A DNA stretch of 64,000 nt from Lytechinus pictus. Taxonomy: Eukaryota. This document shows, one piece after another, positions 9,161-63,986 of the stretch (position 1 is the stretch's first letter; the number at the start of each line of letters is the position of its first letter). The translations under genes were made by a program, and so were the position numbers. Under the pieces are notes generated by a model. It was not told the DNA's origin. It worked only from the letters and a program-made list of their open reading frames with translations, and ran no database searches. The DNA lies in assembly GCF_037042905.1 (NCBI RefSeq), contig NC_087245.1:21578001-21642000 (forward strand), written 5' to 3'.

Positions 9161-9161
9161 T

Positions 9162-9332: not shown

Positions 9333-9689
9333 TATTGGGAAATCCACTTCATCACTGAGAACATATTGGCCATTCCATGAAAAATGGTGAGTAGTAAAAG
9401 TAAAATCTAAAGATTGGCTCTATTTTGAATGAAATTTTAATTGATTGGTTGACTTTGCTAGGAATCTTGATTAAAGGTAACCAAAACCCGCACATAAGGG
9501 ACTTCGCGCTCGTTATGTAGGCTGTGAGAAAGATTTTTTTTGTAGGCTGTGAGAAAGATTTTTTTTTGTGCCCCCCCTTTTTGAAAATCCTGGATCCGCC
9601 CCTGTGTACAGTTTCAGATTAATGTTAGACTCGTGATGTGAAACTAAATTGTCTTACCGAGGCTCAATCATCTAATTGTCGAACTTGGC

Positions 9690-10646
9690 TTACATCAAAG
9701 GCATAATCTCAATCACCATATGTATGCTGATGACACGCAAATATATTTTTCGTGCTCTCCTACACAAGAGGAAGTTGATGCCTGGATTGCTCGTGTTGAA
9801 GCCTGTTTAAGTGAAATTAGGAACTGGATGATGGAGAATTATTTGAAGCTTAATGATGACAAAACTCAGTTTCTTATGCTGGGTTCTAAGCTGCAACTAG
9901 CCAAGCTGACAATTCCAAATTTGCATATTGGTTCCTTATCTATTACTCCAGTGGATAAAGTTCGAAATCTAGGAGTAATTTTTGACTCAAATATGACAAT
10001 GGAATCGCAAGTATCATCGAGTGTTAAACCTGTGATCTACAGTCTCCGCAATCTCCATATTGTTCGCAAATATCTCCCTAAAAAAGCTGCTGAGCAGCTT
10101 GTTCATACATTTGTTACTTCTCGCATCGATTGTTGTAACTCTTTGTTGTACGGCATTCCCATGTCTCAAGTAAAGAGACTTCAACTTGTTCAGAATGCCG
10201 CTGCACGTCTAGTTACCTATACGCGGAGGTCTTCCCATATCACACCAGTCCTTAAGTCCCTTCATTGGCTTCCTGTTCAACATCGTCTCACCTATAAAAT
10301 TCTTCTGATAGCATATCGTGCGCTGACCTTCTCTTCACCAGAATACATCTCATCTCTTCTTGATTTTCGCAAGCCTGGTTGCTCTGGTCTTCACTCTTCT
10401 AAGACTTCTAATCTTGATCTTTCTATTCCAAAAACCAGACGGTCATGGGGAGATCGGCATTTGCATCAGCTGCTCCCCGTCTATGGAACAATCTTCCAAC
10501 TAGACTAAAAGACTGTAGATCAGTAGAACATTTCAAGGCCAGTTTGAAAACTTATTTAATGGCCAAATTGTAAGTGTACCAGTAGAGAGTTAAGTTTATT
10601 GTAAGCGCCTTGAGCACCCCTAATATTATTATTATTATTATTATTA
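9690..10646 (+). mobile_element. 5'-truncated L2-like LINE (RT C-half), frameshifted
   Basis: ORF 9720-10508: YADDTQIY, NYLKLNDDKT, VRNLGVIFDS, LQLVQNAAARLV, HITPVLKSLHWLPV. Frameshifted continuation AFASAAPRLWNNLP...FKASLKTYL. 3' end GTAAGCGCCTTGAGCA + (ATT)n. Confidence 0.9.
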
Positions 10647-11035: not shown

Positions 11036-12108
11036 GTAGGCCTACGAAGTGATATGGATATAAGACCAAGTGGAAATTAGACCAATTGGATATTATTAGA
11101 CCAAGTGGAAATTAGACTAAATGGAAATTAGACCAAGTGAAAATTAGACCAAACGGTCATTAGACCATATAACAATTAGACGAAATGAACATTAGACCAA
11201 GTGGAGATTAGCCGAAGTGGAAATTAGATCAAGTGGTGTTAGACTAACTGCAAATTAGACTAAATGGTTTTAGCCCAACTGCTTATTAGCCATATTGGAT
11301 ATTAGACCAAGTGGGAATGAGACAAATTTGATATTAGACCAAGTGAGAATTAGCCCAAATGGAAATTAGACGAATTGGATATTGGACCAAGTGGGAATTA
11401 GACGAAGTGGATATTAGACGAACTGGTTGTAGACGAAATTGGTTTAGATTATGTGAAGATGAACGACCTGATAAGTAGACCGAGTGATATTAGACCATCC
11501 AATAATTCACCAATTACTCCAGCGTTGTCAGATAAACTTCTTGATTGTCACCTGAATTATTTTATGTAACACCTGCCTCTTTTTTTGACCACGACTATTA
11601 AAACGGTCTCAAGAAGTTAGCTATCTTGAAATCTCCAACCAAAGTGTTTCATTATCATTACTGCTTTGGCACTATGCTCCTGAGATGCAAAGAGAGAACC
11701 AAATCACTGTGACCCACAGGTCTCTCCTCCAGATATAACTGATTGGAGTGAAGTTGGATAGTTTGAGGAGGATGAGAATACTTTAAAGTCCAACTTAAAT
11801 GTCAGATTAATACGTTTGGCTGCCCAGATTTCACCCTCATATCAAAACCACGGTTTAACTGGAGTTATGACATCAAAATTAACCAGTCTGTGCACCCCAT
11901 CCCATTACTTGAGGGCGCTCTGGTAAATTTCCGACACACATCAGCACCGAGTACAATAGATAATACATATACATTAGTGCACAGTACAGCTGCAGAACAT
12001 ATTACCAGATACCCGTTTTACGAGCTAAGATGTGAATCATGCACAGATTGTCTGTATGGAGTTGATGATGTCCATATAAAATGGTTGAAGAGACTTAACT
12101 GAAGGATG

Positions 12109-30100: not shown

Positions 30101-30711
30101 TGGAAGAATTCCCTCATCATAGGATTGTTGGAAGAGATGAGTAAGGACTGGGCTAATCTCATCTGCATAGTCTCTTAACATTCTAGCAGGTATTTCATCT
30201 GGACCACTGGCTTTGTTGGTGTTAAGTTCTTTCAGTTGTTTATTCACTCCTCGTAAGCTGATGAAGAGATCTTCAATTGGTGTGTACGGTGAGGGACCCT
30301 TGTCTGGTAGTCTGATATTTTGCACACGGAGAAAAAAAACTTGTTTAGGGGGTGTTTGGAAATAATTTGGTCACGCATGTGTACAGCAATACATTTGACT
30401 GCCCCCCCCCCCCCGGGCTCACATCATGCCAAACGAATAATAACACAAAATGATAAATCATGACTTACGAATCTAACCATAATCAAGATAGATAGAACAT
30501 TAATTTCTTCACGTGGGACTACAGAAAGGAATTGCACTCATACCTGGCTATCGTCAATTGCACAGAAATCTGCGACAGCGGTTACGATTTCTAGCTCATA
30601 ATCCTCTTCATCCCCATCATTTATGTGACTGCAATCTCCACTTTGATTTTCATTTCCATTGCAAGTTGTAAATGATGTTGAATTTCCATCCGATCTATCC
30701 CCCATTTTCAT
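12109..30711 (-). CDS. PRMT2: Protein arginine N-methyltransferase 2 (SH3 + type I PRMT), 10 coding exons, 441 aa
   Basis: Exons (minus strand, all GT-AG, phases compatible): 30711-30544 (GCCATG start; ...IVTAVADFCAIDDSQ), 22550-22368 (SH3 LSFETGQVLSVLRKTNVDWWWARKGNTTGYIPTNHI; DEYFGSY), 21752-21663 (EMLSDQARNEAY), 19788-19717 (motif I VLDVGCGTG), 17878-17714 (VHSIEAS; VDLIISEWMGTLLI), 16085-15913 (FEFMIESVLIARD, completing the double-E loop), 14596-14467, 13938-13799 (LHGFASWFSVDF), 13149-12978 (THW loop LTHWKQ), 12141-12109 (TFNKTFKVWR-stop). Total 1326 nt. An N-terminal SH3 domain is diagnostic of PRMT2. Confidence 0.95.
14085..14272 (-). mobile_element. tRNA-derived SINE
   Basis: Minus strand: GAGGCACAATAGCTCAGTCAGGAGAGCG (A box) ... 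GGGTTTGCTCCCC (degenerate B box), followed by a GTGCCCTTTGGTAAGGCATTT body typical of SINE2 elements. Confidence 0.7.
15437..15530. repeat. Short tandem repeat (~4 x GTGGTTGC(A/T)GTAC(G/T)GA.CAGAC)
   Basis: Four similar 21-26 bp units are visible directly. Confidence 0.7.
16207..17290. mobile_element. Non-autonomous DNA transposon with CAG termini and 4-bp TSD (Academ-like)
   Basis: TIR CAGTCAGACCGCAGGTCCC / GGGACCTGCCGTCTGACTG (18/19). CAAA duplicated at 16203-16206 and 17291-17294. Internal inverted repeat ~16603-16628 / 16873-16898. Confidence 0.75.
22620..23145. repeat. 28-bp minisatellite (~18 copies of GAGGCAAAT(T/C)ACATCCAGAATGTC(A/G)TCA)
   Basis: Period 28 read directly (AGGCAAA at 22651, 22679, 22707...). 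It explains the repetitive ORFs 22468-23058 and 22610-23014. Confidence 0.95.
23226..23447. mobile_element. MITE with TA flanks
   Basis: TA-TTGGGGCGTTGCAAGAAA ... TTTCTTGCAACACCCCAA-TA inverted termini, with internal CAATTGCA inversions. Confidence 0.75.
24017..24216. mobile_element. MITE (inverted termini)
   Basis: GGCAGTTTCATAAAATA..GTACGTCCGACCCC / GGGGTCGGACGTAC..TATTTTATGGAATTGCC. Confidence 0.65.
27735..28441. mobile_element. Non-autonomous hAT-like element
   Basis: Termini TAGGGTTTCTG / CAGACACCCTA, with flanking TTTAGGG(G) duplicated (7-8 bp). It interrupts CAACTTGTTTAGGGGCC, which is contiguous at ~45770-45786. Confidence 0.7.
28535..30315 (-). mobile_element. 5'-truncated non-LTR retrotransposon (CR1/RTE-X-like; clade unresolved) with an uninterrupted RT ORF (28709-30325, 538 aa)
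   Basis: KASGPDEIP, NYRPVSLT, QHGFRKGLSCETQL, FLDFSKAFDKV, GVPQGSVLGP, FADD, KYLGV, MFPRTIRIWNTLP. 3' UTR ends in a (TTCAAGA)2 tail near 28535. Lies in PRMT2 intron 1, same strand as the gene. Confidence 0.93.
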
Positions 30712-31243: not shown

Positions 31244-32672
31244 CAACCGCGTAGCCAGGATTTCATTTTTGAGGGGGCGGTAAATGCAAGCGAAGCGTGC
31301 CAACCAACACTTACAGAGCGCGCGAAGTGCTCCTTAGGGGGTGGGTGCAGGGAGGGCTTTTGGTGTTTCATATATCGAAATGAAAAGGAGCCGTCTCTCT
31401 TGTCTCTAGTACCTATATTAGCTCCAATTCAGTTGACTATATTGTGATTTTTAACCTTGTTTTCATGAACCTTGTTTTTAAAAGTGATTGTGAACGCACA
31501 AAAAAGGAATACAATGGAGGAAATTAAAATAATAATTACCCTGCGCGAAGCGCGGAAGCTAAAGCGTTTTATCAATTTTTTTGCCATGAAAAGGGTCCCG
31601 AGAAAAGGGTATTCTCAAAGATATATTGAATACTTCCCTTGGAAAGATCAGATTTGATTACAAACAATTTAGCGACAGTGCATATCATTAACTCGCAAAA
31701 CAGAGGAGAAGAAGTGTATATGCCGTGAGGAAGATATTCCTCCCCGCGCAGAGCAATGAAACTCTGAAATTTCAAAAAAAAAGGGCGGACGTTTCATCAA
31801 ATGCATATATATCTAATACCACATCGGCTCTAATTCAATTGATTTTCTAAGACTATTGAACTTCATTACAAGGAAAATAGTGCGCAAAAAGTTGAAACTT
31901 CTGTGATTTATTGTAATTATACGAGAAAGGAGGCCTAATTTCTTTGACTTATCCGGAAGCGCTTGATTTTGAATTATAAAGAAACTTAAGTGTCATTCAA
32001 AATTTCAAACTGAGGGCGCAAAACAGGACAGATGAATGTGCAGGGAAATGACATGAAGTTTAATAGAATTTGATAAAAAATATTGTACCTTTTTATTTAA
32101 TACGACACGAATTTTATACCTTCCTCTTTTTAAATTAGGAACCTGTTTGCCCCAAAATTATGGTTGTTTAGTAATGAGCTGAAAAGCAGGAGAAGTTGAC
32201 TTTATGGAGGTGACGGCAGAAATTGATATAAAGATTTTACCCGCCCGGAGCCAACCCGACCAGAAGTTGCGCGATCAATTAAAAAAAAAAGATAACTTCA
32301 TATACTTCGGCCCAACCTAACTCTTAATTCCATGCCCTAATATATACATTTGAACTTTAACTGGCAAGAAACACATATAGCTGAGGTGGAAAAACAGGGT
32401 TAGAGAAAGGGTGGGGGAAACAATGGAGAACTTCAATATTGTCATTTAACCGCGCGCAGCGCGGAAGCAAAATTCATATATAAATTTAGAGCAAGAGAAA
32501 AGGAGTTTCTCTTTTGAGAAAAAAAAAGAATAAGAAGAAAAAACAAACACAAAGCTACCTTTCCTCCCTTCCCTTTTCCTTTTCTCCTCTCTTTTTTCCC
32601 TTCTTTTTTCTTTTTGGGGACGTTTTTTTTTGGGGGGCGACCGCCCCCACCGCCCCCCTGGCTACGCGCCTG
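31244..32672 (+). mobile_element. Non-autonomous hAT element, copy 1
   Basis: TIR CAACCGCGTAGCCAGG / CCTGGCTACGCGCCTG. Perfect 8-bp TSD GGATCACC (31236-31243, 32673-32680). Confidence 0.9.
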
Positions 32673-34553: not shown

Positions 34554-34682
34554 CAGGCGCGTAGCCAGGGGGGGGCGGTGGGGGCGGTCGTCCCCAAAAA
34601 AAAACGTCCCCAAAAAGAAAAAAAAGAGAAGGGAAAAAAGAGAGGAGAAAAGGAAAAGGGAAGGGAGGAAAGGGAAGAAAGG

Positions 34683-34716
<34 letters not shown>

Positions 34717-35997
34717 CTCAAAAGAGAAACTCCTTCACTCTTGCTTTAGATTTATATATGAATTTTGCTTCCGCGCTGCGCGTGGTTAAATGACAATATT
34801 GAAGATCTCCATTGTTCTCCCCACCCTTTCTCTAACCCTGTTTTTCCACCTCAGCTATATGTGTTTCTTGCCAGTTAAAGTTCAAATGCATACATTAGGG
34901 CATGGAATTAGAGTAAGGTTTAATAGGCCGAAGTATATGAAGTTATCTTTTTTTTTAATTGATCGCGCAACTTCTGGTCGGGTCGGCTCCGGGCGGGTGA
35001 AATCTTTATATCAATTTCTGCCGTCACCTCCATGAAGTCAACTTCTCCCGCTTTTCAGCTCATTACTAAACAACCATAAGTTTTGGGGCAAACAGGTTCC
35101 TAATTTAAAAAGAGGAAGGTATAAAATTCGTATCGTATTAAATAAAAAAGTACAATATTTTTTATCAAATTCTATTAAACTTCATGTCATTTCCCTGCAC
35201 ATTCATCTCCTGTCCTGTTTTGCGCCCTCAGTTTGAAATTTTGAATGACACTAAAGTTTCTTTATAATTCAAAATGAAGCGCTTCAGGATAAGTCAAAGA
35301 AATTAAGTATCCTTTTTATATAATTTCAATAAATCACAGAAGTTTCAACTTTTTGCGCACTATTTTCCTTGTAATGAAGTTCAATAATCTTAGAAAATTA
35401 ATTGAATTAGAGCCGATGGGGTATTGGAGATATCCGCATTTGATGAAACGTCCGCCCTTTGAAATTTCAGAGTTTCGTTGTTCTGCGCGGGGAGGAATAT
35501 CTTCCTCCCGGCATATACACTTCTTCTCCTCTGTTTTGCGAGTTAAAGATATTCACTGTCGCTAAATTGTTTGTAATCAAATCTGATCTTTCCAAGGGAA
35601 GTATTCAATATGTGTTTGAGAATACCCTTTTCTCGGGACCATTTTCATTCAAAAAAAATTAATAAAACGCTTTAGTTTCCGTGCTTCGCGCGGGGTTATT
35701 ATCATTTTCATTTCCTCCATTGTATTCCTTTTTTGTGCGTTCACAATCTTGTTTTAAAACAAGGTTCAAAATCACAATATAGTCAACTGAATTGGAGCTG
35801 ATATATAGGTACTAGAGACAAGAGAGACGGCTCCTTTTCATTTTAATTTATGAAACACCAAAAGCTTCGCGCTTCGCGCGGGAGGGGGAAACTCCCCCTC
35901 CCTGCACCCACCCCCTAGGGCGCGCGCTCTGTAAGTGTTGGCACGCTTTGCGTGCATTTACCGCCCCCTCCAAAATGAAATCCTGGCTACGCGGTTG
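34554..35997 (-). mobile_element. Non-autonomous hAT element, copy 2 (inverted relative to copy 1)
   Basis: Reverse complement of 31244-32672 along its length (mirror ORFs MKFQSF..LRGEEYLP at 31572- and 35459+). TSD ATTTATAA / ACTTATAA (34546-34553, 35998-36005). Confidence 0.9.
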
Positions 35998-38900: not shown

Positions 38901-39079
38901 TTCAGACCGAAAACGGCACATTATAAAGCAATTTTTTTTTATAGTCATTCAAATTTACATATATTATTCAGATTGATTAAAAAATAATTATTTTCATATT
39001 TTTTTACTAGCTTGTATTTGATGTGGTAAAGAACGGCTGCCGAGATCAGAAAGGGGCATCATGCCCCCACCTCAGTCCT

Positions 39080-41202
39080 CAATGTGACGATATAAGTAAC
39101 ATTCTCCTGAAAAGAAATCTGATACACATTATTAAACCTTTGACTTATATCTTTAATTTGTCTCTTTCTACAGGAGTTGTACATTCATCATTAAAGCAAG
39201 CCCGAGTAATCCCTGTTTTTAAAAAAGGCGACAACACCGTGTTGGGAAATTATCGCCCCATATCATTATTGACATGCCTTTCGAAGGTTATGGAAAAAGT
39301 AATTTTTGTACGCACGAAAAAGTTTCTTAATATGCATAAATTGATTTATCCCCTGCAGTTTGGTTTTCGCGAAAAACACAGTACTACGCATGCCCTGTTG
39401 GCAATGATCAATAAGATTGCCAATGGAATTGACAAGTATGAGCATACTGTTGGGGTGTTCCTGGACTTCTCCAAGGCTTTCGACACAATCAATCATGATA
39501 TCCTTTTATACAAGCTTAATTATTATGGAATCAGAGGGATAGCCTTGGAGTGGTTCAGGAACTACCTCAGCAGTAGTCAGCAATATGTTTCCATAGCAAA
39601 TATAAATTCCCCTACCAAATCTATCTCATGTGGTCTTTTTTTGGTCTACATTAATGCTTTTTATAAATCTTCAAGTACTTTATCATTCATTCTTCTTGCC
39701 GACGACTCGAATATATTTTTTTCCCATAAGGACCCCAAACATTTACTTGACACATTCAATAAAGAATTAAAACTAGTCTCGGAGTGGATCAAAGCCAACA
39801 AATTATCGCTTAATCTCAATAAAACAAATTACATGCTCTGCAGCAATATCATTGATGAACTCCCCGGTTACATTACTTTTGATGATATTAATATTCAAAG
39901 AGTATTAAATACGAAATTTCTAGGAGTAACTATCGACGACAGACTGTCATGGAAAGAACATATAGATAACACATGTAAAATAATTTTACGGAATATTGGA
40001 ATTATAAATAAAGTTAAATTCTACTTTCCGACTCGTATATCATTAAACTTATACTCTACGCTGATACTCCCGCATTTGAACTTTTGTATTATTGCATGGG
40101 GGTTGTGCTGATTTTCATTTGAATAGACTTTTATTACTCCAGAAAAAAGCTTTGCGCGTTATTTGCCATTCTTATTATCGGGCACATACGAATGTTCTTT
40201 TTAAAACTCATGGTATTCTTAAGATACATGATCTTTACCATTATAATCTTGGATCTTTTATGTACAACCTTAGTAGAGATGAACTACCAGACGTATTTTA
40301 TTCTATGTTTACAAGAAATATCAATGTTCATCACTACCCTACAAGATCTGCTGGACTGTTCCATTTACCTCGAACGAGGACATTATTAACAAACAAACTG
40401 TTCATATCTTCTGGCATCAAACTTTGGAATTCACTTTCGCAAACTTTACGAAATAAGCCAACTATTCATAGCTTCAATAGAGCACTTAAAAAAATCTAAC
40501 TAATAACTATAACACTCAAATTATTCATCCTACTTAGGATATCTTGTGGATCTTCTGTTCTTCCGGATTCCCCCCCCCCGCCTTTATTTCGCTTCTATTC
40601 TCGTCTCTGTCTCTTTTTATTCGATCTACATGTGCAGATTTGTTTTTTTGTTTGTTCTTTTGTTTGCTTTCTTTTACTCGTTTTTTGTCCTTTGTTTTGT
40701 TGTTTTTTATTTCAATTTGTCTGTTCTTATACTATTTCGTATGTCTTGTTTTTGTATAACTTTTTGTCATGCCTTGTTCTTGTACCGTTCTGTCACGTCC
40801 TGTTTTTGTAACGTTTTGTTTTGTGTGTCCTTTTCACTTTTTCTTCATATCTTGTAATATAATCCAGCCTTGTTTATCTTTTACTTGGGAGAATATGTAA
40901 AAAAAAATATTTAACAAGGATTTACATTTAATTTCTACAAGAAAGATATGACGACTTGTGTATTATACATATTTTGAACTTTTACAAGAAAGATATGATT
41001 TGTATATTTTATATATATATTGAACTTTGTATTTTTGCATTAATTTGTCTTATTTATTGAAGGAAACCTTCAATAACAAGCTTTGCTTTTCAGAAGGTTT
41101 CTATTTCATTTCATAATGTTATATTATATTTTGCTTTACTTTGTAACCTTGTTGAAATTTTGGAATGAAATAAATTCGTTATCAATCAATCAATCAATCA
41201 AT
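39080..41202 (+). mobile_element. 5'-truncated, degenerate CR1/L2-group LINE (Crack/Daphne-like)
   Basis: NYRPISLL, QFGFREKHST, FLDFSKAFDTI, LADD, KFLGVTID. Frameshift near 40100, then LQKKALRVI...KLWNSL. Long T-rich 3' UTR, AATAAA and a (TCAA)n tail to 41202. Confidence 0.9.
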
Positions 41203-43347: not shown

Positions 43348-44739
43348 ATGACATCCACCTTTCGATTTTGCACCATGTGTGGAGACGACGACGACGTCGG
43401 AGGAATTCCAACGTTTGGTAGTAAAGGTGAAACGGAAGATGACCCAATGAACCCCTTAGTCGTGTCCATCATCGAAGCACTCTTCGTACTCTTGATCGCT
43501 GTACTTGCAGTCTTCGGTAATGTAATGAACATCGTGGTAATCGGTGGATCAAAATCACTCAAGAACTGTCAGGGATATTTTCTTTTGTCACTCGCCATTG
43601 CCGATTTGGGGATGGGAATCGTTGCTACGATAGGCATAGCTCCAGCCACCATGCATCGATGGCCCTATGGTGACTTCATGTGTCAATTTTCTTCCTATGT
43701 AACAGAGGTGTGTACCAGGGTATCGCTCATAATGATTATTGGCCTTAGTATTGAACGGTACATTGCTGTGATCCATCCTTTTCAGTACAACCGCATCGTC
43801 ACCAAAAACCGAGTTCTCTTTACTATCATAATTACCTGGCTCTTATGCTTGGCATTTTTTCTTGTCCTCTTTACGGAGGTTGGACTGGGATACGAATTCG
43901 ATCTGGACAAACTTGCCTGTTCCGCAGCATATGAAGACACAATGGAATACTACATCGCCGCTTTGGCGATTCTCCTAGTACCAAGTTTCGCGGTGATTAC
44001 TTTCACTTCGATAAGTGTCCATGTACGAGTTCTTCAAAGTTCCAAAAGGCGCCAAATACTCTTCGGAAGGTCGACTTCTGCAAGCCCGGGGAATGGTGAA
44101 CGATTCCCCATGCATTTCCGAAGGAACATGAAAGCTTTTAAAATGCTTGTGATAATAGCAGGAGTATATTATATCACATGGTTACCCTACACAATCATAG
44201 CAAGTCTCGTCCTTGCCACAGTATGCCACAAAACTCTACCAAGCCTGGTTGAATTCCTCGCCTTTTGGCTCACAGTTTCAAATAGCGGTTTTAATGTATT
44301 TGTGTACTTTGCCATGAACAGAAAGTTCCGCAACAAGGCCAAAGATATCTTTCAAAGGCTACGAGCTACATTCCTTTTCTGTTGCTGCAGACACTTCTAC
44401 GAAGTTTTCGAGGTGATTCGGAGGAATAGGGAGTATCCAAACTCGTCTTTTCAAGGTTCAGTGGACCGTAGGTTTTACTTAGGTATTAGGAACTCCAAAG
44501 GCGAAGTAGTGCCAACCACTCTTCGCATCAAGTCGGGTAGCTTCAGTGATGCCACAATGAACGCTATAGGTGTGATCCCGACAGATCAGCACATCTTCAG
44601 TTTAAGATCACTGAAGAAGATGAGAAGTGAACCGATGAGGAAAAAGTCAGTCGCCATGCCGACAATGTCCCTGAAAATGGAAATGAGGAGAGAAGGAGGT
44701 CAACCGAAATTCTTCGCTACCGAAGTAGAAGAGACTTAA
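43348..44739 (+). CDS. Intronless class A (rhodopsin-like) orphan GPCR, GPR21/GPR52-like
   Basis: Single ORF with 7 hydrophobic segments and motifs GN (TM1), SLAIADL (TM2), WPYG..C3.25, ERY (TM3), W4.50, TWLPY (TM6), SNSGFNVFVY (TM7), plus a Cys cluster after helix 8. In-frame ATGs at 43348 and 43375 (ACCATG context). The ORF track starts at an upstream TTG (43330). Confidence 0.9.
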   Translation: MTSTFRFCTMCGDDDDVGGIPTFGSKGETEDDPMNPLVVSIIEALFVLLIAVLAVFGNVMNIVVIGGSKSLKNCQGYFLLSLAIADLGMGIVATIGIAPATMHRWPYGDFMCQFSSYVTEVCTRVSLIMIIGLSIERYIAVIHPFQYNRIVTKNRVLFTIIITWLLCLAFFLVLFTEVGLGYEFDLDKLACSAAYEDTMEYYIAALAILLVPSFAVITFTSISVHVRVLQSSKRRQILFGRSTSASPGNGERFPMHFRRNMKAFKMLVIIAGVYYITWLPYTIIASLVLATVCHKTLPSLVEFLAFWLTVSNSGFNVFVYFAMNRKFRNKAKDIFQRLRATFLFCCCRHFYEVFEVIRRNREYPNSSFQGSVDRRFYLGIRNSKGEVVPTTLRIKSGSFSDATMNAIGVIPTDQHIFSLRSLKKMRSEPMRKKSVAMPTMSLKMEMRREGGQPKFFATEVEET

Positions 44740-51700: not shown

Positions 51701-53942
51701 AAATGAAATTCTCTTCCACCGACTTCAGGAAATATTACCCAGCTTGAGCAATTCAAAGTGCAATTAAAAACCCACCTCTTTCAAAATGTTTTACTAAGTT
51801 AGGTTCAATCTATATACTTTAAGATTTTTTTATGTTTATAATATATATTTGATGTTTAATTTTTAAATCTACAATTCTAACCATATTTCCCACTTTCCTC
51901 ACGCATAGAGACCTGTTATGCGTCTATTAAAAACTGTACAATTATTATACAGGGTGTTATTTCTATTAAAAAAAAAGGTAACCGAAGTACAAAGGTCAGC
52001 TATATCAAGAATACATGATTTATTCCTGTGATTCCTTTTCTACATAATTGAGTAACTCATCAACGTTAATTTGACACCTTCACTGCGTCACAATTGTCAC
52101 GGGGAGTTATGGTCATTCGGAGGTGACAGCTACGTACAAAACCCACTTATTCCACTTTGGGGGGTTTTAATGTACAAGCACGAAACCAAATTCGTTGAAA
52201 GGTTTTGGTTTCATCAGAGATTTTCCCTGCAAATTTCAGTAAAATGCATATTATACCCTTCTTATATTTTTTTTCAGTAAATGTTACATAACTGGTGTAT
52301 AGCTGCAATAATGGCTCATCACATCCTCGGTGACTTGCAGGCACATGTTTTGCGTATAAGCGTAAGATAAATGTTCTTCATCACAACCCCGTAATGGTTA
52401 GAAGAGCAAATACAGGACATGCAACGTCAACTGTGAGGTTCTGTGAAAACATTGGATGTGTTGATGCAAAAGTTAGGGGTGAATGACGTGTTCAACAGAG
52501 ATTGAAGCTAGTCAGTTGATATGTAAATGCCAGAAACTCACAAAAAAGTTAACAGAGGGGATAGGATTTTACTTAAATTTTGAAGGGAAAAATATGATGA
52601 AACAAAAACCTTACAAAAAAGTAGGTTTCTTGCATGTACATTAAAACCCAAAACTTGGAAAAAGTGGATTTTTGTACCTTTCGCCTTCGATGGACCATAA
52701 CTCCCCGTGACAATTGTGACGCAAGGAAGGTGTCAAAATTAAGTCGATGAGTTACTCAATTATTTAGAATACCAATCTAAAAAATAAATTATGTATTCTT
52801 GATATAGCTGACCTTTGAACTTCGGTTACCTTTTTTTTATAGAAATAACACCCTGTATATATTTCATATCATTTTGCAACCCGTAGCCTGGTTGATCAAG
52901 CTCTTACCCACTTCGCTTACATTATAATCGTTTCAACAAATAAAAGGCGCATACCTATTTGCAATATCGTTCGTATAAAAACATAATTTGTTTTCATCTC
53001 ATTTCCTATATCATGTATAATTTAGCTTTTGTTTTCATCTTATTTCCTATATAATGTATACTATAGTTTATTCGTGGAAAAAAAAACATTTAAAGTATTT
53101 GGGAAAAAAAACACCGACGTTAGTCTATTTCTTTTCTAAAAGATAAATTTTTCTCATCTTAATAATCTACTTGATATCGCTTAACAAGACTGTACTTTCT
53201 TTGCTTCAAACCTCTTAACATCGGGACCAGTGGATAGGTTGTAAAATTAAATGTATCGTTAAAATAGAAAAGACGTTTGGTATGCCTTGATTACAGAATA
53301 ACATTTCTTATGGTGGCAACTTAGAAATTATGCTCGCTCGCTTCGCAGGCTCCCTCCACTGTCTATCAACGCTGGGCCACTGATATTCGCATTCAACAAC
53401 GTAAAACAATTATTAAAAAATCGATAATCAAGCCAAAAAAAATACTAACAAAAATGAAACACTGAATATGTGATAAATGATCTTTGATTTCCCCGCTTCC
53501 TCTGATCTTTCCTGCTTCACATTTTTGTTTGATCAACACGCCGCTGACTCTCATTTTACCTCGCAAACAATGGATAACCTGACGTCATAATTGTCATGAC
53601 TGGAAAGTATCAAAGTACATAAGCATGATAACATGCACCAAATATATTTTTTTTTATATAGTAAACAGACCATGTAACTAAATTCAGAATTTTCCCCGTT
53701 TCAAATAGTAGGGGATCGACACCAGCTTAGAGTAAACGGATGAATGAATTTATTCCCCAGCGGAGCAACATTTCGCGAATCACCCTTATTCTGTGACTGA
53801 ATATTCTTTACAATAAATTTAGATGTAGTAACTAAAATCCATCTTTTTTTTTTCGGGGGGGGGGGGGGGTAACAATTTAGTGTTGATGCCCAACTTTTAT
53901 GGCAGACACTATATATAGATATAGATATATATATACATATAC

Positions 53943-54006
<64 letters not shown>

Positions 54007-57000
54007 GTATATAGAGGGGATATATAGAGGGGAATATATACACACACATACATTGAATTCATTGAAGATGGATGGGTTGTAACGCTGTAACGCAGAGCCA
54101 TTTGAACAATCTGGAGCTAACGAAGTAAGTTTATTATTTTGCAAGCTTTGATATCATATAAATCAAAGTATATGACATGCATGAATCACACTTTGAACTC
54201 CTTGAAGAAATTCATTAACATGATAAAGAGCTTAATAAGATGTGGACCATTCACATCTCATGAAGCAGTAATTTGTCTTTAAATTTTAGTGTAAAATATT
54301 GATTTAAGAGATATTTTTGAATCGCTTTCTATAACTGAATATAACATTAATACCGATTATTTTCCTTTCCTCTGTATCTCTTTTACAAAGGCGTTAACTC
54401 CTGTTCTGTTCAAATGAGAGTAGACCTCCTCGAAAGAAGGATTGAGAGTCTGAAAAATGACTTGTCAAGGAAAAAAATGAAGATAGCCTTTTTCGGAGGG
54501 TGAGTGTGTACAGTAAGAACGAAATAATCCACGTTCATAAGATCTTTATAAGAGCTTCCCAATGCTGATCAGTGAACTTGCATATGTCCCATCAAGGCGT
54601 TGTCGACCTTGCCTGTCCTGATTAAAAACAAATAAATTTGACAAAGATGAATGTGTATCCAAGGGATGTACGCCTGAACTCCTTGAAAATAATTCAGAAT
54701 ACCCATCGGAGAATTTGGCAACCATCAAGAAGTTTCAGAGTATTTTTGTGCAAACGATTTTCTTACCTCTTGCCCCTCAAAAGAAAATTTTTCTCCAGAG
54801 AAATTGATGTTTCCAGAGAACTCATTTGCTCTGAGGTAATGAGAATTTGATGCAAGGATTTCAGTAGCGGTCTAACAATAATTAGTAAAATCACTGGGAT
54901 ATGCGAATATGTAATGCCAATTATTCCAGTTTTGTAAACCGGTACACACAATGATTTCCACTGCGAATCAGTCAAATTGAGCTGGCCCGATCAAGTACAT
55001 TTTCAGCCAGGTCTTCTCTGATCAAACGGGCCGTCTGCACCATCCCGAGTTTTCAAATTAGCGCGCTATTTCTGATCCGACAAATTATCCCGATCTGAAC
55101 AATCTCGAGGTTATTTGCAATGGTGACGCATTTATCGCGCTATAGTTCGTAGGATTAATCTCGAGATTGCAATCCCAATTCAACTTGGGATTATTTGCAA
55201 AATAGCGCGCCATTTTACGAATTATCGCGCTAATTCGTAGGTGCAGACGCACTCGGGATTATTTATTCACGGCGTCAGACCATAATGCATCGATGCCTCG
55301 CTCGAGCAGGAATCGCTCTTCTTGCGATGGTGGAGACGGGGTTTCTTGAATCTCGAGATTAATCGCGAAGAGGGCCGATCGATCGGGCTAAAATCTCGAG
55401 ATTGAGCAAACTCGGGATGGTGCAGCACCGCCTAAAGACAAATCGGAAGAGGGTAGCTACTTTACACGCGAATCGGATTATTAAAAAACTTGCCATGTTC
55501 CTGCTGTGGATCAGTCATCTCGACCAGCATTCAAACCAGTTTTTGACCAGATGGATTAGAAGCTCGGCAGTGTTGACCAGGGTCAATCTACCAGGATCAG
55601 CATCTATCTACCTTGATCTGCACACCACTCTGGTTTTTGTTCGATAATAGAAACCGAACATACAAAATTATCATGAACACTTTCAATATATTTGAGTAGG
55701 TAATCAAGGCATAGTAGATCACATCGGTCATGGAGTAGCTAGCTGCGATATTCCCATGATCATTTTCTCGTCAAAGGTAGATTGAACCTGATACTGTATC
55801 GAGCTAGACCGAATAGGTCCAACTTAATTGGGTTGATTGGGCCTAATCGCGTTGGCAGATTGGCAGTGGGAAGCTAGCATCCGTGATTCATTGATTCATA
55901 CCCTCACCAGCGTCTACATAGAATATTCATATATAGCCTGTAATTCAACCCCGTTTCAACATCAAATTGCTAACTTAGCGACCCTTTAGGCCAATATACG
56001 CCGCAGGCTGCAGTTCTGATCGATTTGATATAGGGTTCTTAAATCCTTATTTCTAAATCGTATTTCTGGGCCCCGTTGCAAAAAAAGAGTTGAGATTGAA
56101 TGCACCTTAAAAAAATCAAGCGCATGTCCGTAATACGAACTATTAATAAAATATTGATTGAAAATCAAATTGTGTATATATATTTTTTGTTAGTTACGTT
56201 TGATTACAAGTATTTCTGCAACGATTTCTTGGTGTCACATTATTCTTTTGGCAGTACGAGCAGCGGGAAGACCACAACTTTGAATGCCATGATTGGGCAA
56301 GAACTACTACCATCCGGGATGGGTGATACAACAAGTTGCTTTGTCCAGATCGAGAAGATGACCAACGATCCGATTTGTGAAAATAGCTCCATAGAAGTCT
56401 CGCCCGCTAAGGAACATACAGAGAGTTGCACGATTGAGAAAAGGAAAGACCAACCGGACGGATCGTATTTTATCGTCAGGGAGGTCGAGAACAGAGAAAA
56501 GGAAGCTTCGCTTGACTCCTTTTTGGAAAATATACAACCTCTCACGATAAATGTTCGTAATCTTATTTACTCCCATGATGCTCGCTCGTATCCTGTGCTC
56601 TTTTTATTCTATTATATATCTCTAGATTTTATCTTCCTGTCAATCAGTTGTTTGTCTCTACCCGTTTGCTCTTATTCATTTATCAACACACTTGGATCTA
56701 AAAATAAGACAATAGTAATAATGAAATATCCATTAAGAAAATACTAGTAAAATTCCGGCATTCTAAACACGAGCTCTCATCTATAGCGGCAATTGTGGCC
56801 CAGGGGATTAGTCTGCTGACTCTGAAACAGAGGGTCGTGGGTTTTAATCCCAGCCATGGCGTAATTTCCTTCTGCAACAAATTAATTCACATTGTGCTGC
56901 ACTCAACCCAGGTGAGGTAAATGGGAATCTATTTCTTGAAATGCTTCCGCGCTGAAAAAAAGGCTGCGGGGTCATGTTAACAATATCCAAGACCTTTGGA

Positions 57001-60000
57001 AGCGCATAGGGACGTCATGTCATGAACTGCATTGTTATTATTAATGATGATGTTATTAGAAATTATGAAGCAATAAAAAACCGTATAGACTAATAGGAAT
57101 TACGTAAATTTTAATAGCCTATAAACACATTTGTCTCTCATAGGCTCTTACAAAGTTATGTGATGTAAAATCAGGCAGCTCCTTGGATTCAACCTATCTG
57201 GTAGAAATACATCTTTCAGAAGATGACATTAAGAATGATCACTTGCTTAACTATGACCTACAAATTATGGATTGGTGAGTCGTCTTCAACTTTTAACCAC
57301 CGAAATTGTCTGTAGCTGCATGGTTTCTGTTATACTATGTAACAAATTATACATATGACACGTATGACGTCACAGGTAAGAAAATCTAATAACTTTCGTA
57401 ATCTATATTTTCTTCAGACCAATGTTTTTTACTATTATTTTCTGGTGTTTTTACAATAAACTTTTGTCAGGGTGAACTTCCCCTTAAACGCTTATTAATG
57501 CTTGTATTTGCTTATTCATCTACCACTGCCTACATTACATTGACGTATTGCTGGTTGGGGGGGGGGGGGGGTCACCCCAACAAAAAGTTTGAATAAAAAG
57601 TGCATAACGCTGAAATTTTCATCACTATCGGATATGAAAAAAAAATGTTATGACATTTTGATATTTTATTACTTTTTCTTTGAACATTTATATGCTTATG
57701 ACAATGATATGCAAATGAGAGAGTCGATGATGTCACTCATTCACTCATTTTCTTTGTATTTTATTGTTTAGATAATAAGAAAGTTCTTTATTGAACCACA
57801 ATATGTTGCATCTTTGGCAATTTTACGCTGTTTATTTCCATTGGTGACTGGTCTATACATGTATTTAACAGCATCACAATAATAATTTGGATTTTGTCTG
57901 AGGAATTTGCTACTCTTATTTTTCCCCCTTTCGAGTGCCTTCTTTAATAAAGAACATATGATCAAGAAGAATATAAATGTATTTCTATAAAGGAATGGAT
58001 ATAATAAATGGCCAGATACGAACGAATATTGCGAGTTCGAAGCACGAGCTGAAAATTTTACTACACTGACCTGAAAGAGGAACAGTTTAAAGATTTTTTG
58101 TATGGATTCATTAAGAAGATGTCTTTCATCAAAATGATTCGCCCGCGAAGCGCTAGCTGAAATTTGACGATATTCAAAACTTGAAAACGGAAACTTTTGT
58201 AATCACAAACAGGATATTTATCTCACTAAACAAATAACACGAGCGCATATACTGATCCGAAAAAGAAACGTTTCAAGCACTGTTTTACATGTAGGAAGCT
58301 TGTGAAGATGCTGTGTATCTCACTAAAAAAATAATGCGGATACGAAGCTCCACCAGAATCTCTTTTTTATACCTATATAAAATAGGAAATAGGAAAAATA
58401 GGAAACGTATCGCCCGAGAGAACTATATACCTACAAAATTGACAATTTTCCAACTCTATTTCATATCATGAATAAAAAGCGTATCGCCCTTAAGACAGGG
58501 CTAGTGTGAGCAAGAAGCGCGACCTGAAAACACTTGATATTCGGAGCCAAAATTGACATTCAAAGCTTGAGCCGATCCAATATTTCCCAATTTGGGGATT
58601 GGGATGGAATTTGGTTTCCTCAATCAGCTACTCGAAGAGCTATAAAGTCTTGTTTATTTGTTTTTCCGTTTGTTTTTCGAGAGGGGGGGGGGGGGGTGGG
58701 AATCCTAAAGACTAAAGTTAAAGCGTAAGTAAATGTTAGCTTTGCGTTTACAGGATAAAATATATTTCTTAGACCTAAATAAAGCGCGAAGCGCGAGCTG
58801 ACAACTATTGAGTACAGATTTGAAGTACAGTATCGGTATCTCACGAATAAAAAAGGTATCAGCGCAAAGAGGGAGCTGGAAATCCTATTTATATATGCTA
58901 ACACAAACCCGAAAATCATTAAGTGACATGAAAATTATGAAGAGATACCTTTGTCAGTAAATGAATAATGCGGGTGGAAAGCGCGAGCTGAAATTTTTGG
59001 AGATGAAGAAATTTAGAACTTAACATTTTACTCACATTTTGTAATCATTAGTGAAAAAAGGCTCATCTAACTATAAACACAAAGAGAAATTCTGAAACAC
59101 TGACATAGACTTTTGTTTTTGTTCCTAGGAAATCATCAACAGGATACATACTTCACAAATCAAATAATACGGGTGCGAAGCGCAGACAGATTTTTTTTTA
59201 TTCAGACCTGACAAGGAGCGTATTAAGCATTGCTTGAAATGTAGAAAAAATCATGCGGATATGTTGTAAAACAAACATGACAAACAAAAGAATTAACCGG
59301 AATACAAGGCTACTGAATATATTTCTTTTATGTTGAGGGCATGGCCTAGCTACAGTGCTCCCCGCCCCAATTTTTTTGTGGGGGACTTGTCGCCCTGTCC
59401 CCCTTGTCTGACGCCAAGAAAATAAAATTCAAACCCTGTTCATGATTTTTTAAAAATTCCTTCCAATTTTATCATTGTTATCATAATAATTATTGTTGTT
59501 ATCATTATCACGATCATTTTCATTTATATCATTATGATTATTGTTCTGGTTATTAGGATCATTGTTATTATCAGTATGATCAGTATGATTACTACGTTTT
59601 CCTGAAATCTTGGGTTATATATTTCGTGATTATCAAATAAAATTATCCTCTTTCCATTGTTCCTGTTTAACATTGCTTATCATTATGATCATGATTATGG
59701 AATACTAATGATTATGTTTGGTAAAAGGAAAAGTATTTGAGTTCCTCTTCTAATTTTCATTTCACATTCTTAATCTCAGTCCAGGAATCACAAAATGTCG
59801 AGAGCTCGGTGATAGAGTGAAAACCTTCTGCAAAGACTCAGATGTACATCTCTTCATTGTGAATCCAAAGACAGTCATGTCACCAGAGGTATTTTTAATG
59901 AATGTTTCTATAGTTGAATCAAGTTCAAAAAGCCCGTCAAGAGAAAATCAATGTGTAGCGACTGTATTCAAGCAGGTCATTGATCTATTTTCATTTGCCA

Positions 60001-60958
60001 CAGCTAAAAAAACATGAAAAAAGTTCCCAGATCGACGTACAACTTTTTACTAGGATCACATATCCCGTACAGAAGACATGATTTTTGGAGTGAACATTTA
60101 ACCGTTTGCCAATAACAACTGATTGGGGAAAAGATCCACAATAATAAATTCCTGTGCACTATTGATACTTAATTGAATCTTTTAATTTCATGATTAAAAA
60201 AATTATTGCATTGTATGATTTATTTTATTTAAGATTAAACGGTAGGATTCTCCAAATTACTCCTAACGTGATAAAAATGAGGAATCACTTATTTTGTGAA
60301 TGTGAAAACTTCAGGTTACCCCAATTCGGCAAAATCTGCATGGTATTATCATTTCCCATAATAGTTCTGTCAGAAATGTTACAAAATTTGAAAATCTTTT
60401 TGGAATTTGCAATTACAAGTCTGTTTTTTACTCATTTTTTGTTATTTAAGTATCACATTCATTCTTGAAAATTTCAGTAATACCATAATACCATCCCCAA
60501 AAATGTATTATTCAAAGCTTTGTTATAAAACAGAAGAATGTTGAATATTATTTAGCAAAAATAAGAAGAAAAGAAAAATAAGGTAAATGGTGTTTTGAAT
60601 TATAATTTCCCCCGCTGCCCTAAGTATAATTGTGCATATTTTGCTTGACAATGTACTGTTTGTTTACATATCTTACGCCTGTAGGTGTATTGCCACATGC
60701 ATTTATCATTGGTGTCAATGTATGTACTTGATTAATGGGATACGTATCATGTTCATTAATAGTTCATAGAATTTCCTGAATTTAGGCCTAAAAAAAAAAA
60801 AAAATCGGCAAGCGCTTCGTGCTAGCATTAGTTGACCGTGATGAGATAACGTACATGCATGCTTTTCACGAATTCCTAAAAAGAGTCTTAAATGTCTCCT
60901 TTTGATCAATACATACAATAATTTCAGCTCGATTTAAGCTCATGTTTTTAATCCATGA

Positions 60959-60989
<31 letters not shown>

Positions 60990-61522
60990 TGTAAAGAAAT
61001 GGATGAAGAGAACAATGGTAGGCGTAGCTTAAATCTAGGTTCCCCAGAGCTATATACCCTTTTGGAAAAATTGGTGATGCCGAAAAAATGTCTCTGCCGG
61101 GAATCGAAACCGGGCCCCCAGCTTTGAACGCCGGTGCCTTAACCACTAGACCACAGAGACGGGTTAGTGGCTAGGGCGACCCCGATCCGATTGACCGTCA
61201 GATAGACAGATTTTCGACACTAAACCAATTATAATTTCCTTTGTCGGGTGAAGGTGGGTTTTGAACAATGACAAGCCGCCATTCCTCAGCTGGATCAAAT
61301 GTATTGCTTTGATACAGTACACGTATGGGATAAAGTATACAAATGTGTGAAGTTATACATGTACATTTTCGGCATCACCACTTTTTCCAAAAGGGTAGAT
61401 TGCTCTGGGGAACCTTGATTTTTTTTAAAGCTACGCCTTCCATTGTTCTCTTCATCCATTTCTTTACTATATTTAAATAAAAGAGTTGCCAAAGCTGTTT
61501 TACATGAAGAACTTCACACATT

Positions 61523-61553
<31 letters not shown>

Positions 61554-63986
61554 ATTATGTTATATTATATTATATATTATATATATAAATTTGTGGAGGG
61601 GGTATGTAAATGTAGCATGGCTTTTTTTTTCTCATAATGTAGGAGCGAGAACATTTTGTTGAAGTAGGAAAACGCCTTTCTAAGCCTGACATCATTGTTG
61701 GTTTCACCCAATGGGATTTATCAGCGAGAGAAAGACACCCTGAAGAGGTTAGAACGTTTTCGTCAATTAATAGTTATCTCCTAACGACTGGTATCTACAT
61801 CGGTCCACACCAGAGAGGTGTTGAAACAACACCAGTTTGGCGTTAGGCTAACTCCAGTTTGGCATTCAAGCAACACCAATTAGTGTTAAACCAATATCGG
61901 TTTGATTCTTAACTGGTGTTGTTTCAACACCTCACTGGTGTGGACTGATATTAAACTAAAATGATATTAATAAAGACTTGTAAACAATTACATACACTGA
62001 ATTCTGAATTGTCAATTGTTGCCGAATTTCAAAATGTGAAAAGTGAAGAATGGAAATTTGTATTTTTGATTATTGAGCTGCATCTCTTCCATGTTGGCCA
62101 AGGTAGGGATTGTAAGATCATATCAGATTTATTTGAATAAGCTTTTGGACATCAGTCAGTAACTCTATCCACTGTTCCATACTAATCTCGGCCATGGAAT
62201 TGAAAGGTACTTTTGTAATTTGTCATTTTGTTTTGATTGGCTGCTGGTAATTTTACGTACAAAATTAATAGGAGGGACAAAATATAAACCTAATCTCAAA
62301 TATTAACGAAATATATTCTTTAGTTCACGTTGTCTTCTTTATGATAAGATAATCAATTTTAATCAAACAGTAAAGCTAAGTAAGCGTTGATTATGCATTT
62401 GTAAATAATTAATCATTAAGATTTTAATTCATTATCAAATCATCAGATGATATAAGATATTGTGATTGAGTGTCAGCGATAGCATCGTTATCGTGCTTAC
62501 AAAATTTGGGAACAAGTTTTTGAAATTGTATTTTTATCTTCATGATTAGTAATCTCAATAATTAGCCACACAGTTAATTGATGATATCGAGTATAATTAT
62601 TTCCAGTAAATAAACGATATGTCGTTGTGAATTTATTTCAGGTTAAAGCTCGCCATGTGGACTCAGTGTTTGAGTTGCTTAAAGAGCTCGATGTCGTAAG
62701 TACGAGAATGGAGGCGGAGGAAAGGTGTTTCTTTTACTCTGGAATAGAAGCACTTGATTTAGCTCTCAATGAAAAGGGTAAATTTAAAAGGAACTACAGT
62801 AGATCTAAAGAAAACACATAGGAAAGCTTTTAGAAGCTGTTACTATAATTAGAAATAATATAATTCATTTTTTTTCAATTCAATTCATTTATTTAACATC
62901 CTTTAAAAACATACAAACATATGTACAGTATACAATAACAAAGGAGTAAAATAATTTAAATCACATTACAAGCAATAAAAAATGGTAGAAATATAAAAGA
63001 AATGAAAATAAAATGTAGCAGATGTAGGAAGTCAGCTTCCTACATCCTAGCTTCCTAGCTTCATAAACGGCACAAATTTTCAGGAATTTAAGAATTCGAT
63101 TTCTAATTACCACGGACATTTTACAAGTCAAAAGGAAGGAAAAGTTATGGTGTTTATGTCACCAGATTGTTTACCCTCAAGTTCGTTTCAATCAAAGCTG
63201 ATAATTATTGAACAGTATATCGAAAATCCAACAAAGAGTATCAGAGATATGATTGTGTTTATTTCAGACGTCACATGCAGTCTAGCAGAAGTAAATGATA
63301 TTGAAAAGTGTTGGAAATAAGTTTGTACTTTTTCTACCTCTTTTTAGGATTCTTGGGAAGGGGATGGGAGGAGAGATTCAAGACATTCCAAAATTTCATG
63401 TCGAAAATTGAGGTAAGATATTACATATATATACTTGTCTGGATAATAAACTTAGAATCTTTATAAATATTCTTTCTTTTGACGCAGAATGGCAAGTAAT
63501 AGCACGAAGATAACCAAAGAGTCACTGAAGTACTGGTGAGGGTGGGGGCTGCTTGTCCCTCAAGTTAATATGTTCACAACGGTGACATTTTTTGGTAATC
63601 ATCAACCGATATTAAATCACTAACATGCTTTTTCAACATCATGAGCCCAAAACTCGGCCCACTGAAGTAATTTTCTCATTACGCTACTATTTTATCAAGC
63701 TATAAAAAGCAGAATATCATTATAAAATTATCAGGCGTTCTCTAGTGGGCCCCTAGACAACATAATATTTGTGATAAAACATATTTATGAATTAAGGTAT
63801 CTTTTTTTTCTTTATTTTTTTACTACCATGAAGCTTCTGTGTTTTTCTCTTACTCTTGGTTCAGGAGAGGGCGACTACTGCAGGAATAACTGCCAAACTC
63901 TCTATGAATCGTGAAAATTGCCAAGAAGTATTGGAACAATGCATCGAATGTCTCTCATTACTCGAAGGGAATGTACTTAGTAAGAT
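48728..63986 (+). CDS. Divergent mitofusin-like (Fzo/MFN family) dynamin-superfamily GTPase; first 9 coding exons (~406 aa), continues beyond the window
   Basis: Exons: 48728-48872 (MESSGG..LEKFARAKKEQQLLYDDTGDLI), 54391-54499 (LSRKKMKIAFFG), 56255-56552 (G1 GGTSSGKT; LPSGMGDTTSCF), 57144-57274 (LLNYDLQIMD), 59780-59888 (G3 DCPG; FCKDSDVHLFIVN), 61643-61747 (KRLSKPDI; G4 TQWD), 62642-62777 (ERCFFYSGIEAL), 63348-63412 (RFKTFQNFMSKIE), 63865-63986. All GT-AG. Intron phases 1,2,0,2,0,0,1,0,2 give one open frame and match the vertebrate MFN2 pattern as I recall it. Confidence 0.88.
49960..51948 (+). mobile_element. Old L2-like LINE broken into three pieces by later insertions
   Basis: Colinear ORF2 pieces: ~49980-50070 (VAGSIIQPVSKARDLGLIV), ~50755-51060 (LHKIGK..HNSAARL..EHITP/LHWLPIRSRI..FKCIHGFAP) and ~51605-51790 (GDRAFQKAAP..FKVQLKTHLF). 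3' stem and tail at ~51900-51948. Confidence 0.7.
50085..50412 (+). mobile_element. Helentron-associated (HINE/DINE-like) non-autonomous element fragment
   Basis: TGACCTTTGACCTT core, an internal duplicated ~45-bp unit (CTAAGTTATGA..AAGATTTC), a (GCC) microsatellite and a 3' hairpin TCTCGC..GCGAGA. Confidence 0.45.
51950..52855. mobile_element. Tc1/mariner-like non-autonomous element
   Basis: TA-CAGGGTGTTATTTCTAT ... ATAGAAATAACACCCTG-TA, with imperfect TIRs of ~170-200 bp. Confidence 0.85.
53910..54012. repeat. (TA)n microsatellite
   Basis: Read directly. Confidence 0.9.
55027..55433. mobile_element. Harbinger-like MITE
   Basis: Inverted termini CTGCACCATCCCGAGTTT / AAACTCGGGATGGTGCAG; internal AATCTCGAGATT palindromes. 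Confidence 0.6.
56785..57050 (+). mobile_element. tRNA-derived SINE
   Basis: A box TGGCCCAGGGG, B-box-like GGTTTTAATCCC, central TGTGCTGCACTCAACCCAGGTG..AAATGGG, LINE-like 3' AAGCGC..(TAT)n. Confidence 0.75.
60991..61467. mobile_element. Inverted-repeat element inserted in (TA)n, carrying a tRNA-like gene
   Basis: ~100-bp inverted arms 60991-61090 / 61364-61467 (GTAAAGAAATGGATGAAGAGAACAATGG..GGTGATGCCGAAAA; mirror peptides KEMDEENNGRRS in the ORF track), with (TA)n on both sides. Confidence 0.85.
61089..61160 (-). tRNA. tRNA-like gene with anticodon TCA (opal-suppressor-like; possibly pseudo)
   Basis: GTCTCTG TG GTCT AGTGGTTA AGGC A CCGGC GTTCAAA GCTGG GGGC CCGGT TTCGATT CCCGG CAGAGAC A, then TTTTTT. 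7/7 acceptor stem, D arm, 5-bp anticodon stem, 4-nt variable loop, T arm with one mismatch (T53:C61). Anticodon at 61125-61127. Confidence 0.6.
61797..61950. mobile_element. Short palindromic MITE
   Basis: ATCGGTCCACACCAGAGAGGTGTTGAAACAACACCAGTT / AACTGGTGTTGTTTCAACACCTCACTGGTGTGGACTGAT. Confidence 0.75.

Follow-up and report, generated by a model that had tools for sequence, protein, structure and literature searches.

A (TA)n tract in the sea urchin Lytechinus pictus harbours an inverted repeat and, within it, a tRNA-like gene whose UCA anticodon would read UGA, which raises the question of what such a gene is for and how it came to be there. Here we report that the locus consists of two truncated copies of a head-to-tail unit joined head-to-head, and that the family to which they belong is abundant, young and non-coding, with a unit of 404-406 bp. 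The probable explanation, in our judgement, is a tRNA-carrying, ribozyme-free, non-autonomous parasite of Penelope type whose long RNA is predicted to mask the tRNA. All positions are those of the window, that is, the whole 64-kb stretch of DNA that was analysed, and statements from the literature refer to the available parts of the sources named.

Two truncated copies joined head-to-head

ARAGORN reports a tRNA at 61160-61089 on the minus strand and labels it tRNA-SeC, a label that comes from the anticodon TCA. The generic tRNA model of Rfam is the top match at the same place (RF00005, 53.9 bits against a gathering threshold of 29, E 1.2e-10), accompanied by one lower-scoring match of the same clan. 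These results uphold the 72-nt cloverleaf of the preliminary description, with its paired acceptor, A box, GT-TCA-AA anticodon loop (61129-61123), discriminator A and T6 run. The acceptor stem has seven Watson-Crick pairs; elsewhere in the tRNA such pairing is absent at U11-G24, at G29-U41 and at the end of the T stem, where the last pair is broken. The gene had also rightly been set apart from tRNA-Sec, with which it shares the UCA anticodon; the urchin tRNA differs in its 4-nt variable loop, in having A73 and not G73, and in its ordinary 7/5 fold (PMC9976931, available part). The coordinates of these and the other features are collected in Table 1.

The inverted arms of about 100 bp that first marked the locus are real, with 89.2% identity over 102 columns between 60991-61086 and 61366-61467, and the DNA of the inverted-arm locus folds with a z of -19. 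They are not terminal repeats; each is a copy of the same internal stretch of the head-to-tail unit. The element had been taken to end at 61467, whereas its right limit is at 61522/61523, next to the right (TA)n tract that begins at 61523, so that 55 further bases belong to it. The two truncated copies meet at 61365/61366 with their 3' ends (in the tRNA sense) outward, and the right copy ends 24 nt past the main copy's start point. From the arithmetic of the window the unit measures 375 + 31 = 406 nt, which leaves 334 nt when the tRNA (61089-61160) is subtracted.

Table 1. Features of the locus and of the neighbouring gene, in window coordinates.
Feature	Position	Strand	Remarks
Left (TA)n target tract	60959..60989		
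Main copy, oriented in the tRNA sense; 375 nt of a unit of ~406 nt	60991..61365	-	Outer 3' end blends into (TA)n at 60991-60986
Unit part downstream of the tRNA (left arm)	60991..61082	-	Second T run, T5, at 61070-61066
T6 run resembling a Pol III terminator, immediately after the discriminator base	61083..61088	-	Family-wide
72-nt tRNA-like gene; 7/5 cloverleaf, 4-nt variable loop, anticodon TCA, G32, A73	61089..61160	-	T53 private to this copy
Canonical B box core	61101..61109	-	Disrupted here at 61109; family form intact
Anticodon loop with two bases of its stem, match to B-box core GWTCRANNC	61121..61129	-	
A box	61143..61153	-	Consensus of PMC4333407 (available part)
Inverted, degenerate counterpart of tRNA positions 9-72 together with T run and the arm downstream	61161..61290	+	Antisense leader in tRNA-sense RNA
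Small hairpin	61294..61313	-	2 bp longer with family-majority letters
Stem-loop with AC-rich loop	61317..61364	-	Loop contains the equivalent of the right copy's outer end
Head-to-head junction, private to this copy	61363..61366		3 bases (ACA) common to the tRNA 3' end
Second copy, inverted, 5'-truncated	61366..61523	+	Extends from the T run that follows the tRNA across arm and link
One-sided, tail-like extension, 51-56 nt	61468..61523	+	Single copy observed
Right (TA)n target tract	61523..61587		
Dynamin-family exon and likely further exons	56100-56744, 59754-60017, 62597-62821, 63051-63320	+	

The element probably sits in an intron of a dynamin-family gene, of which one exon matches Pfam Dynamin_N (E 2e-10) and likely further exons have no Pfam matches. 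The window around it is rich in other repeats. A 151-bp hairpin element at 61799-61949, with 39-nt arms that are 95% complementary, resembles a small MITE. An inverted pair of about 1.45 kb (31244-32672 and 34554-35997, 89% identical), beside a (CAT)n tract, may represent a further head-to-head insertion or else a fold-back of large size, and a smaller inverted pair of 335 bp (51946-52278 and 52536-52859) is 82% identical. A broken hAT-type transposase with DUF4371 and hAT dimerisation matches occupies 7335-9294 (+), and reverse transcriptase remnants (Pfam RVT_1) at 9648-10508 (+), 28709-30370 (-) and 39011-40499 (+) look like ordinary non-LTR elements. Tandem arrays lie at 22627-23095 (28 bp, 16.8 copies) and 11055-11437 (16 bp, 22.8 copies). 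As for genes, a single-exon GPCR at 43348-44739 (+) has 57% identity to 'GPR21' of Diadema antillarum, the best named match of 16, and short exons at 14350-21830 (-) resemble a protein arginine methyltransferase; the one piece scanned had no Pfam match.

An abundant family and its antisense leader

Contigs from four of 24 listed runs (X3, X11, X12 and X15, the last being RNA only by guess) were placed on 60991-61522; 5,910 contigs of X3, 30 of X11, 1 of X12 and 78 of X15 lie on this stretch, which bears out the expectation of a mobile, high-copy family. The element is also present in runs labelled as organisms B, C and D, possibly samples with the same animal. The 434-nt X12 contig closes on itself with a period of 404, running from 61315 to 61061, through arm and extension to 61522, and re-entering at 61329. 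Loose ends behind 61365 (18 in X3, 2 in X11) are the reverse complement of the extension, one joint leads from 61364 through the link to 60993, and no contig among those listed spans the junction 61365/61366. In an assembly-graph cycle of this kind, tandem arrays and terminal redundancy look alike. The 21 X3 loose ends behind 61520 have a CA/TA-repeat consensus, with an agreement of 0.65. The element pattern had no match in viral contigs, prokaryote genomes or phage records, and its one match in a metagenome, inside unrelated sequence, was set aside as chance.

The letter that breaks the B box at 61109 is peculiar to this copy. The other letter accounts for 610,709 of 612,953 in X3, a figure in summed depth that is not a copy number, and it is dominant in X11, X12 and X15 too; the family has the G53 that the preliminary description had looked for in a consensus, and its B box is therefore intact. 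Among the best 40 of 56 variant rows, whose depths go down to below 10, only 61109 lies within the tRNA. One X11 contig over 61061-61220 carries 1 other letter and the X12 contig over 61061-61315 carries 6, all of them located outside the anticodon loop. Both TCA, which might have been private to this copy, and G32 are therefore family-wide. The T6 run is likewise conserved: in X3 a T is missing from it at no more than 11,014 of a depth of 809,352. This copy differs from the family majority at 8 of 375 positions (about 2%), so the family is young and a common anticodon is to be expected by descent.

Apart from 61109 of this copy, none of the 12 variant positions of X3 falls in the tRNA (p 0.07), nor does any of the 19 found in any run (p 0.016), and no variant of at least 8% lies within the 72 nt. 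Since variants avoid the tRNA, some constraint acts on its sequence; this avoidance would equally fit a functional tRNA.

What is new here is an antisense copy of the tRNA, without the anticodon arm, built into a tRNA-bearing element. It occupies the 130 nt directly upstream of the tRNA, with 82 of 113 aligned bases identical (73%) and an alignment score of 77.5, where 500 shuffles gave 50.3 +- 6.0 (maximum 72.5). The alignment's longest gap is exactly 61135-61117, the anticodon arm (positions 26-44). ARAGORN at a relaxed threshold found no second tRNA in this leader.

Folding predictions give the tRNA-sense RNA of 61290-61010 an energy of -105 kcal/mol (z -4.9), compared with -88 (z -2.5) for the opposite strand. 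The unit folded as a circle has a z of -4.5 with the letters of the window and -6.8 with majority letters (40 shuffles each), and the fold of the leader by itself is ordinary (z -1.1). In the predicted rod the partners of the leader are the D arm, the T arm, the acceptor 3' strand and the T run, with the anticodon hairpin left outside this pairing (pair probability 1.0). The length of the leader matters in these predictions: with 0, 5 or 8 nt the acceptor stem forms with probability 1.0, with 12 nt the acceptor pair probability is 0.17 (0.03 with G53), and with 17-70 nt a forced cloverleaf is 6-18 kcal/mol worse. At least 12 upstream bases are thus predicted to mask the cloverleaf and to leave the anticodon hairpin alone free. 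A Pol III transcript with a short leader could fold as a tRNA, and a long transcript would hide it.

Whether the rod itself is maintained can be approached through the variants. A neutral alignment holds 8 G-U and 9 A-C mismatches, with no asymmetry between the two. Set against the rod, the 21 family variant rows (20 in 60991-61365 and 1 in the link, poorly covered right-arm rows being excluded) comprise 11 at unpaired positions, 6 that turn a pair into G-U and 4 that break a pair; 6 of the 9 private changes break one. The mean fold cost of the family variants is 0.3 kcal/mol, compared with 1.05 for 150 random changes (p 0.06, or p 0.12 for the X3 rows alone) and with 2.4 for the 9 private changes (p 0.006), a set that is itself harsher than random. 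These values suggest selection on the RNA rod weakly at best, and the rod is possibly an old neutral fold-back whose hairpin was skipped in copying. At paired positions of 61061-61310, counted on the tRNA-sense RNA, the family transitions are 6 C>U or A>G and 1 G>A; the numbers are small, and the skew fits either tolerance of G-U pairs or deamination of an RNA intermediate. The G>A at 61065 and C>T at 61238 come from different runs and were not counted as a compensatory pair.

Proposed Penelope-type spread and its alternatives

The way in which the element has inserted points to Penelope-like elements (PLEs), which had been named in passing as a possible partner and which fit the head-to-head pair, the one-sided extension and the (TA)n flanks. 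According to the available part of PMC8557442, inserted PLEs are partly tandem and carry at their 5' end a copy that is inverted and 5'-truncated; a tail of 30-40 bp is often present at one end, and Naiad and Hydra have (TA)n targets. Three of these traits recur at the locus: 61366-61523 is the inverted truncated copy to 61365-60991, the contigs follow the head-to-tail order of a partial tandem (pLTR) or of terminal redundancy, and the insertion lies in a (TA)n microsatellite. The extension, known from one copy only, has 51-56 nt compared with the published 30-40 bp. PMC11167929, in the part available, explains the PLE tail by two internal start points of reverse transcription and places initiation in an AC-rich stem-loop, with ATT cleavage; the right end of our locus is located within an AC-rich loop, part of a predicted hairpin. 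By its insertion behaviour the element is a candidate non-autonomous PLE with a putative PLE partner.

The likeness extends to the non-autonomous PLEs of PMC8557442 (Chlamys families such as MRC1) and to the insertion pattern of Naiad, Neptune and Hydra; common to both sides are head-to-tail units, the lack of an ORF, the inverted truncated 5' copy, the one-sided extension and the (TA)n targets. To this pattern the urchin element adds a near-perfect tRNA gene, a terminator and the antisense tRNA copy. In the available part of that paper a tRNA is named once, for Sec tRNA, and no sea urchin family is included. Searches of the openly accessible literature yielded no tRNA-bearing PLE parasite and no sea urchin UCA repeat. 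For the autonomous partner, the 13 window ORFs scanned contained no PLE protein, and five motifs compared with the available part of the Naiad/Chlamys/Hydra supplement of PMC8557442 gave no credible match and one by chance.

Based on these observations, we suggest that the element is a non-coding retroelement, about 405 bp long, that uses an enzyme borrowed from a PLE. Its template would be a long RNA comprising, at the minimum, one full unit and a further 24 nt. Reverse transcription would take place where a (TA)n tract is nicked and would begin at either of two points some 50 nt apart, and the joining of the two truncated cDNAs head-to-head may have produced the observed anatomy, of which we have one junction. 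The unit itself may have originated when its tRNA-bearing end folded back in the distant past. In the long RNA, the predicted pairing of the fold-back with D arm, T arm, acceptor 3' strand and T run may shield the template from cutting by RNase P and RNase Z, and the tRNA gene would have been retained as a Pol III/TFIIIC module. It speaks against this reading that the tRNA promoter cannot make the long RNA except by read-through of the T6 run.

One competitor is a retrozyme-like cycle with the tRNA in place of the hammerhead, in which RNase P or RNase Z would cut multimers at the tRNA into unit-length RNA that is afterwards shielded by the leader. Animal non-LTR retrozymes (PMC7229834; bioRxiv 10.64898/2026.07.22.740005; available parts of both) have a tandem unit of 150-450 bp and a self-paired RNA, and have also been proposed to be PLE parasites; the urchin family, with its unit of 404-406 bp, tandem order and predicted fold, falls within that range. 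In plant retrozymes and viroids the ribozyme is hidden through pairing (PMC7229834, available part), the inverted copy starts within 3 nt of the tRNA 3' end, and the tRNA is spared by variants. Against this, the leader would be made before the tRNA and beats the cloverleaf by 6-18 kcal/mol, so that the substrate is expected to form only seldom; between the tRNA and the outer ends there are 100-150 nt; the three common bases at the junction suit plain microhomology as well; and another opposite-strand joint, 61192/61334, is away from any tRNA end. Retrozymes proper are defined in these sources by a type I hammerhead in each unit, whereas the urchin family has no hammerhead core: the Rfam scan gave none at E up to 5, and a candidate at 61290 was discarded, as its CTGANGA, the only one, is created by a private change and disappears with the majority letters. 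We consider the tRNA-based cycle unlikely. Similarly improbable is a satellite, or an array of tandem tRNA pseudogenes, that spread as DNA by recombination or rolling circles, with an incidental inversion. The head-to-tail continuity of the contigs would suit it, as would the 8:9 balance of mismatches, which fits a neutral old inverted duplication, but the locus amounts to less than 1.4 units, which point in opposite directions and have both outer ends in (TA)n, no further copy of the family occurs elsewhere in the 64-kb window, and it is the tRNA-sense strand that folds better (z -4.9 vs -2.5).

An origin as a MITE, a fold-back DNA transposon or a DIRS-type element, with the inverted arms as its ends, would account for 89% arms in a TA context and for a second, 28-nt inverted pair that is positioned like the internal complementary region of DIRS. 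One inversion of the unit yields both inverted pairs, and at 61365 the contigs continue head-to-tail, the junction being spanned by none of those listed; we rejected terminal inverted repeats as a fixed property of the family, and with them the DNA transposon suggested in the preliminary description, and give this origin hardly any credence. A miniature LTR element of the Helenus type (TRIMp3), with the tRNA sequence in its repeat, is scarcely credible. Helenus, Ajax and Cassandra are short, non-autonomous and non-coding, carry a Pol III gene such as a tRNA inside the repeat and can form tandem arrays, while being LTR elements with a primer-binding site and a polypurine tract (PMC10886601, available part); the urchin element inserts in PLE fashion, has a terminator right behind its tRNA and, in this copy, shows no direct terminal repeats, and truncated copies head-to-head in (TA)n are not an integrase product. 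With tRNA-derived SINEs (SINE2) the element has A and B boxes, high copy number and retroposition in common. It differs from them in the 205 nt of element upstream of the tRNA and in the T6 run immediately after it: the urchin tRNA is internal, fully paired and ends at T6, and the unit is circularly permuted, without a tRNA head and 3' body.

The anticodon and the significance of the family

The anticodon calls for separate consideration. Position 32 is a pyrimidine in nearly all tRNAs, and G32 is rare in working tRNAs. Together with the purine at 36, G32 supplies, in a post hoc observation, the letters required by a B-box core (consensus GWTCRANNC, PMC4333407, available part), which the anticodon loop and two stem bases match; there are 21 such cores on both strands of the 64-kb window, another of them at 61266. 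This match lends some support to the Pol III/TFIIIC cassette that the preliminary description had offered as one reading. The available parts of PMC5372738 and PMC11231383 deal with termination at oligo(T) and with what the 32:38 pair does.

Compared with the synthetase identity sets in the available part of PMC9976931, which may not be those of a sea urchin, the tRNA has no full set for any amino acid, and partial sets for Trp, Gly and Glu. It has the Trp determinants A73, C35, A36 and G1-C72 and lacks C34; of the Gly features G1-C72, A73 and C35 are present and C36 and C2-G71 missing; and the Glu features G1-C72, U2-A71 and a missing residue 47 occur in its body without U35 and C36. For Arg it lacks A20, and for Sec both G73 and the long arm. 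The gene is probably a relic of Glu or Gly type, and G32 with UCA would seem to be a change that founded the family and by chance made a second B-box core, not a tuned decoder.

Could the element nonetheless be selfish DNA with a working UGA-reading tRNA, whose short-leader Pol III transcript folds, is trimmed and is charged, most likely with Trp or Gly? A box, B box, T6 run and TCA are all intact in the family, short transcripts are predicted to fold as a cloverleaf, no variant of at least 8% touches the 72 nt, and the Trp and Gly features listed above are in place. G32 and the missing determinants tell against it, a young family has a common anticodon by descent, and hundreds of active suppressor genes would presumably be costly. 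Judged from sequence, a working suppressor is very unlikely, and the opal suppression that had been proposed finds no support in a family-wide G32 and incomplete identity sets. A two-state RNA, in which the long intermediate masks the tRNA and Pol III frees it from hundreds of copies to be charged and to read UGA, would be a transposon that carries and amplifies a non-Sec opal suppressor in an animal nucleus; we think the odds heavily against it. Nor is the idea of service to a UGA-containing partner supported: the Penelope-like ORFs with UGA reported from clams and spiders (Naiads; PMC8557442, available part) are accompanied by SECIS elements and use Sec tRNA, and because of these SECIS elements they need no such tRNA. 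The same part of that source contains no UGA-containing Penelope-like ORF from a sea urchin.

If the family is indeed a tRNA-carrying parasite of Penelope type, PLEs would have a small-RNA-gene-bearing parasite of their own, a counterpart to the SINEs of LINEs and to Cassandra and Helenus among LTR elements, and a mobile RNA would be seen to carry an intact tRNA uncut by the tRNA-processing enzymes. It may also offer a short, ribozyme-free substrate for studies of PLE reverse transcription and (TA)n targeting. Annotation of the L. pictus genome is liable to list copies of this kind under tRNA-Sec or among suppressor genes; if they did act as suppressors, that would be a much greater surprise than the parasite that we propose.
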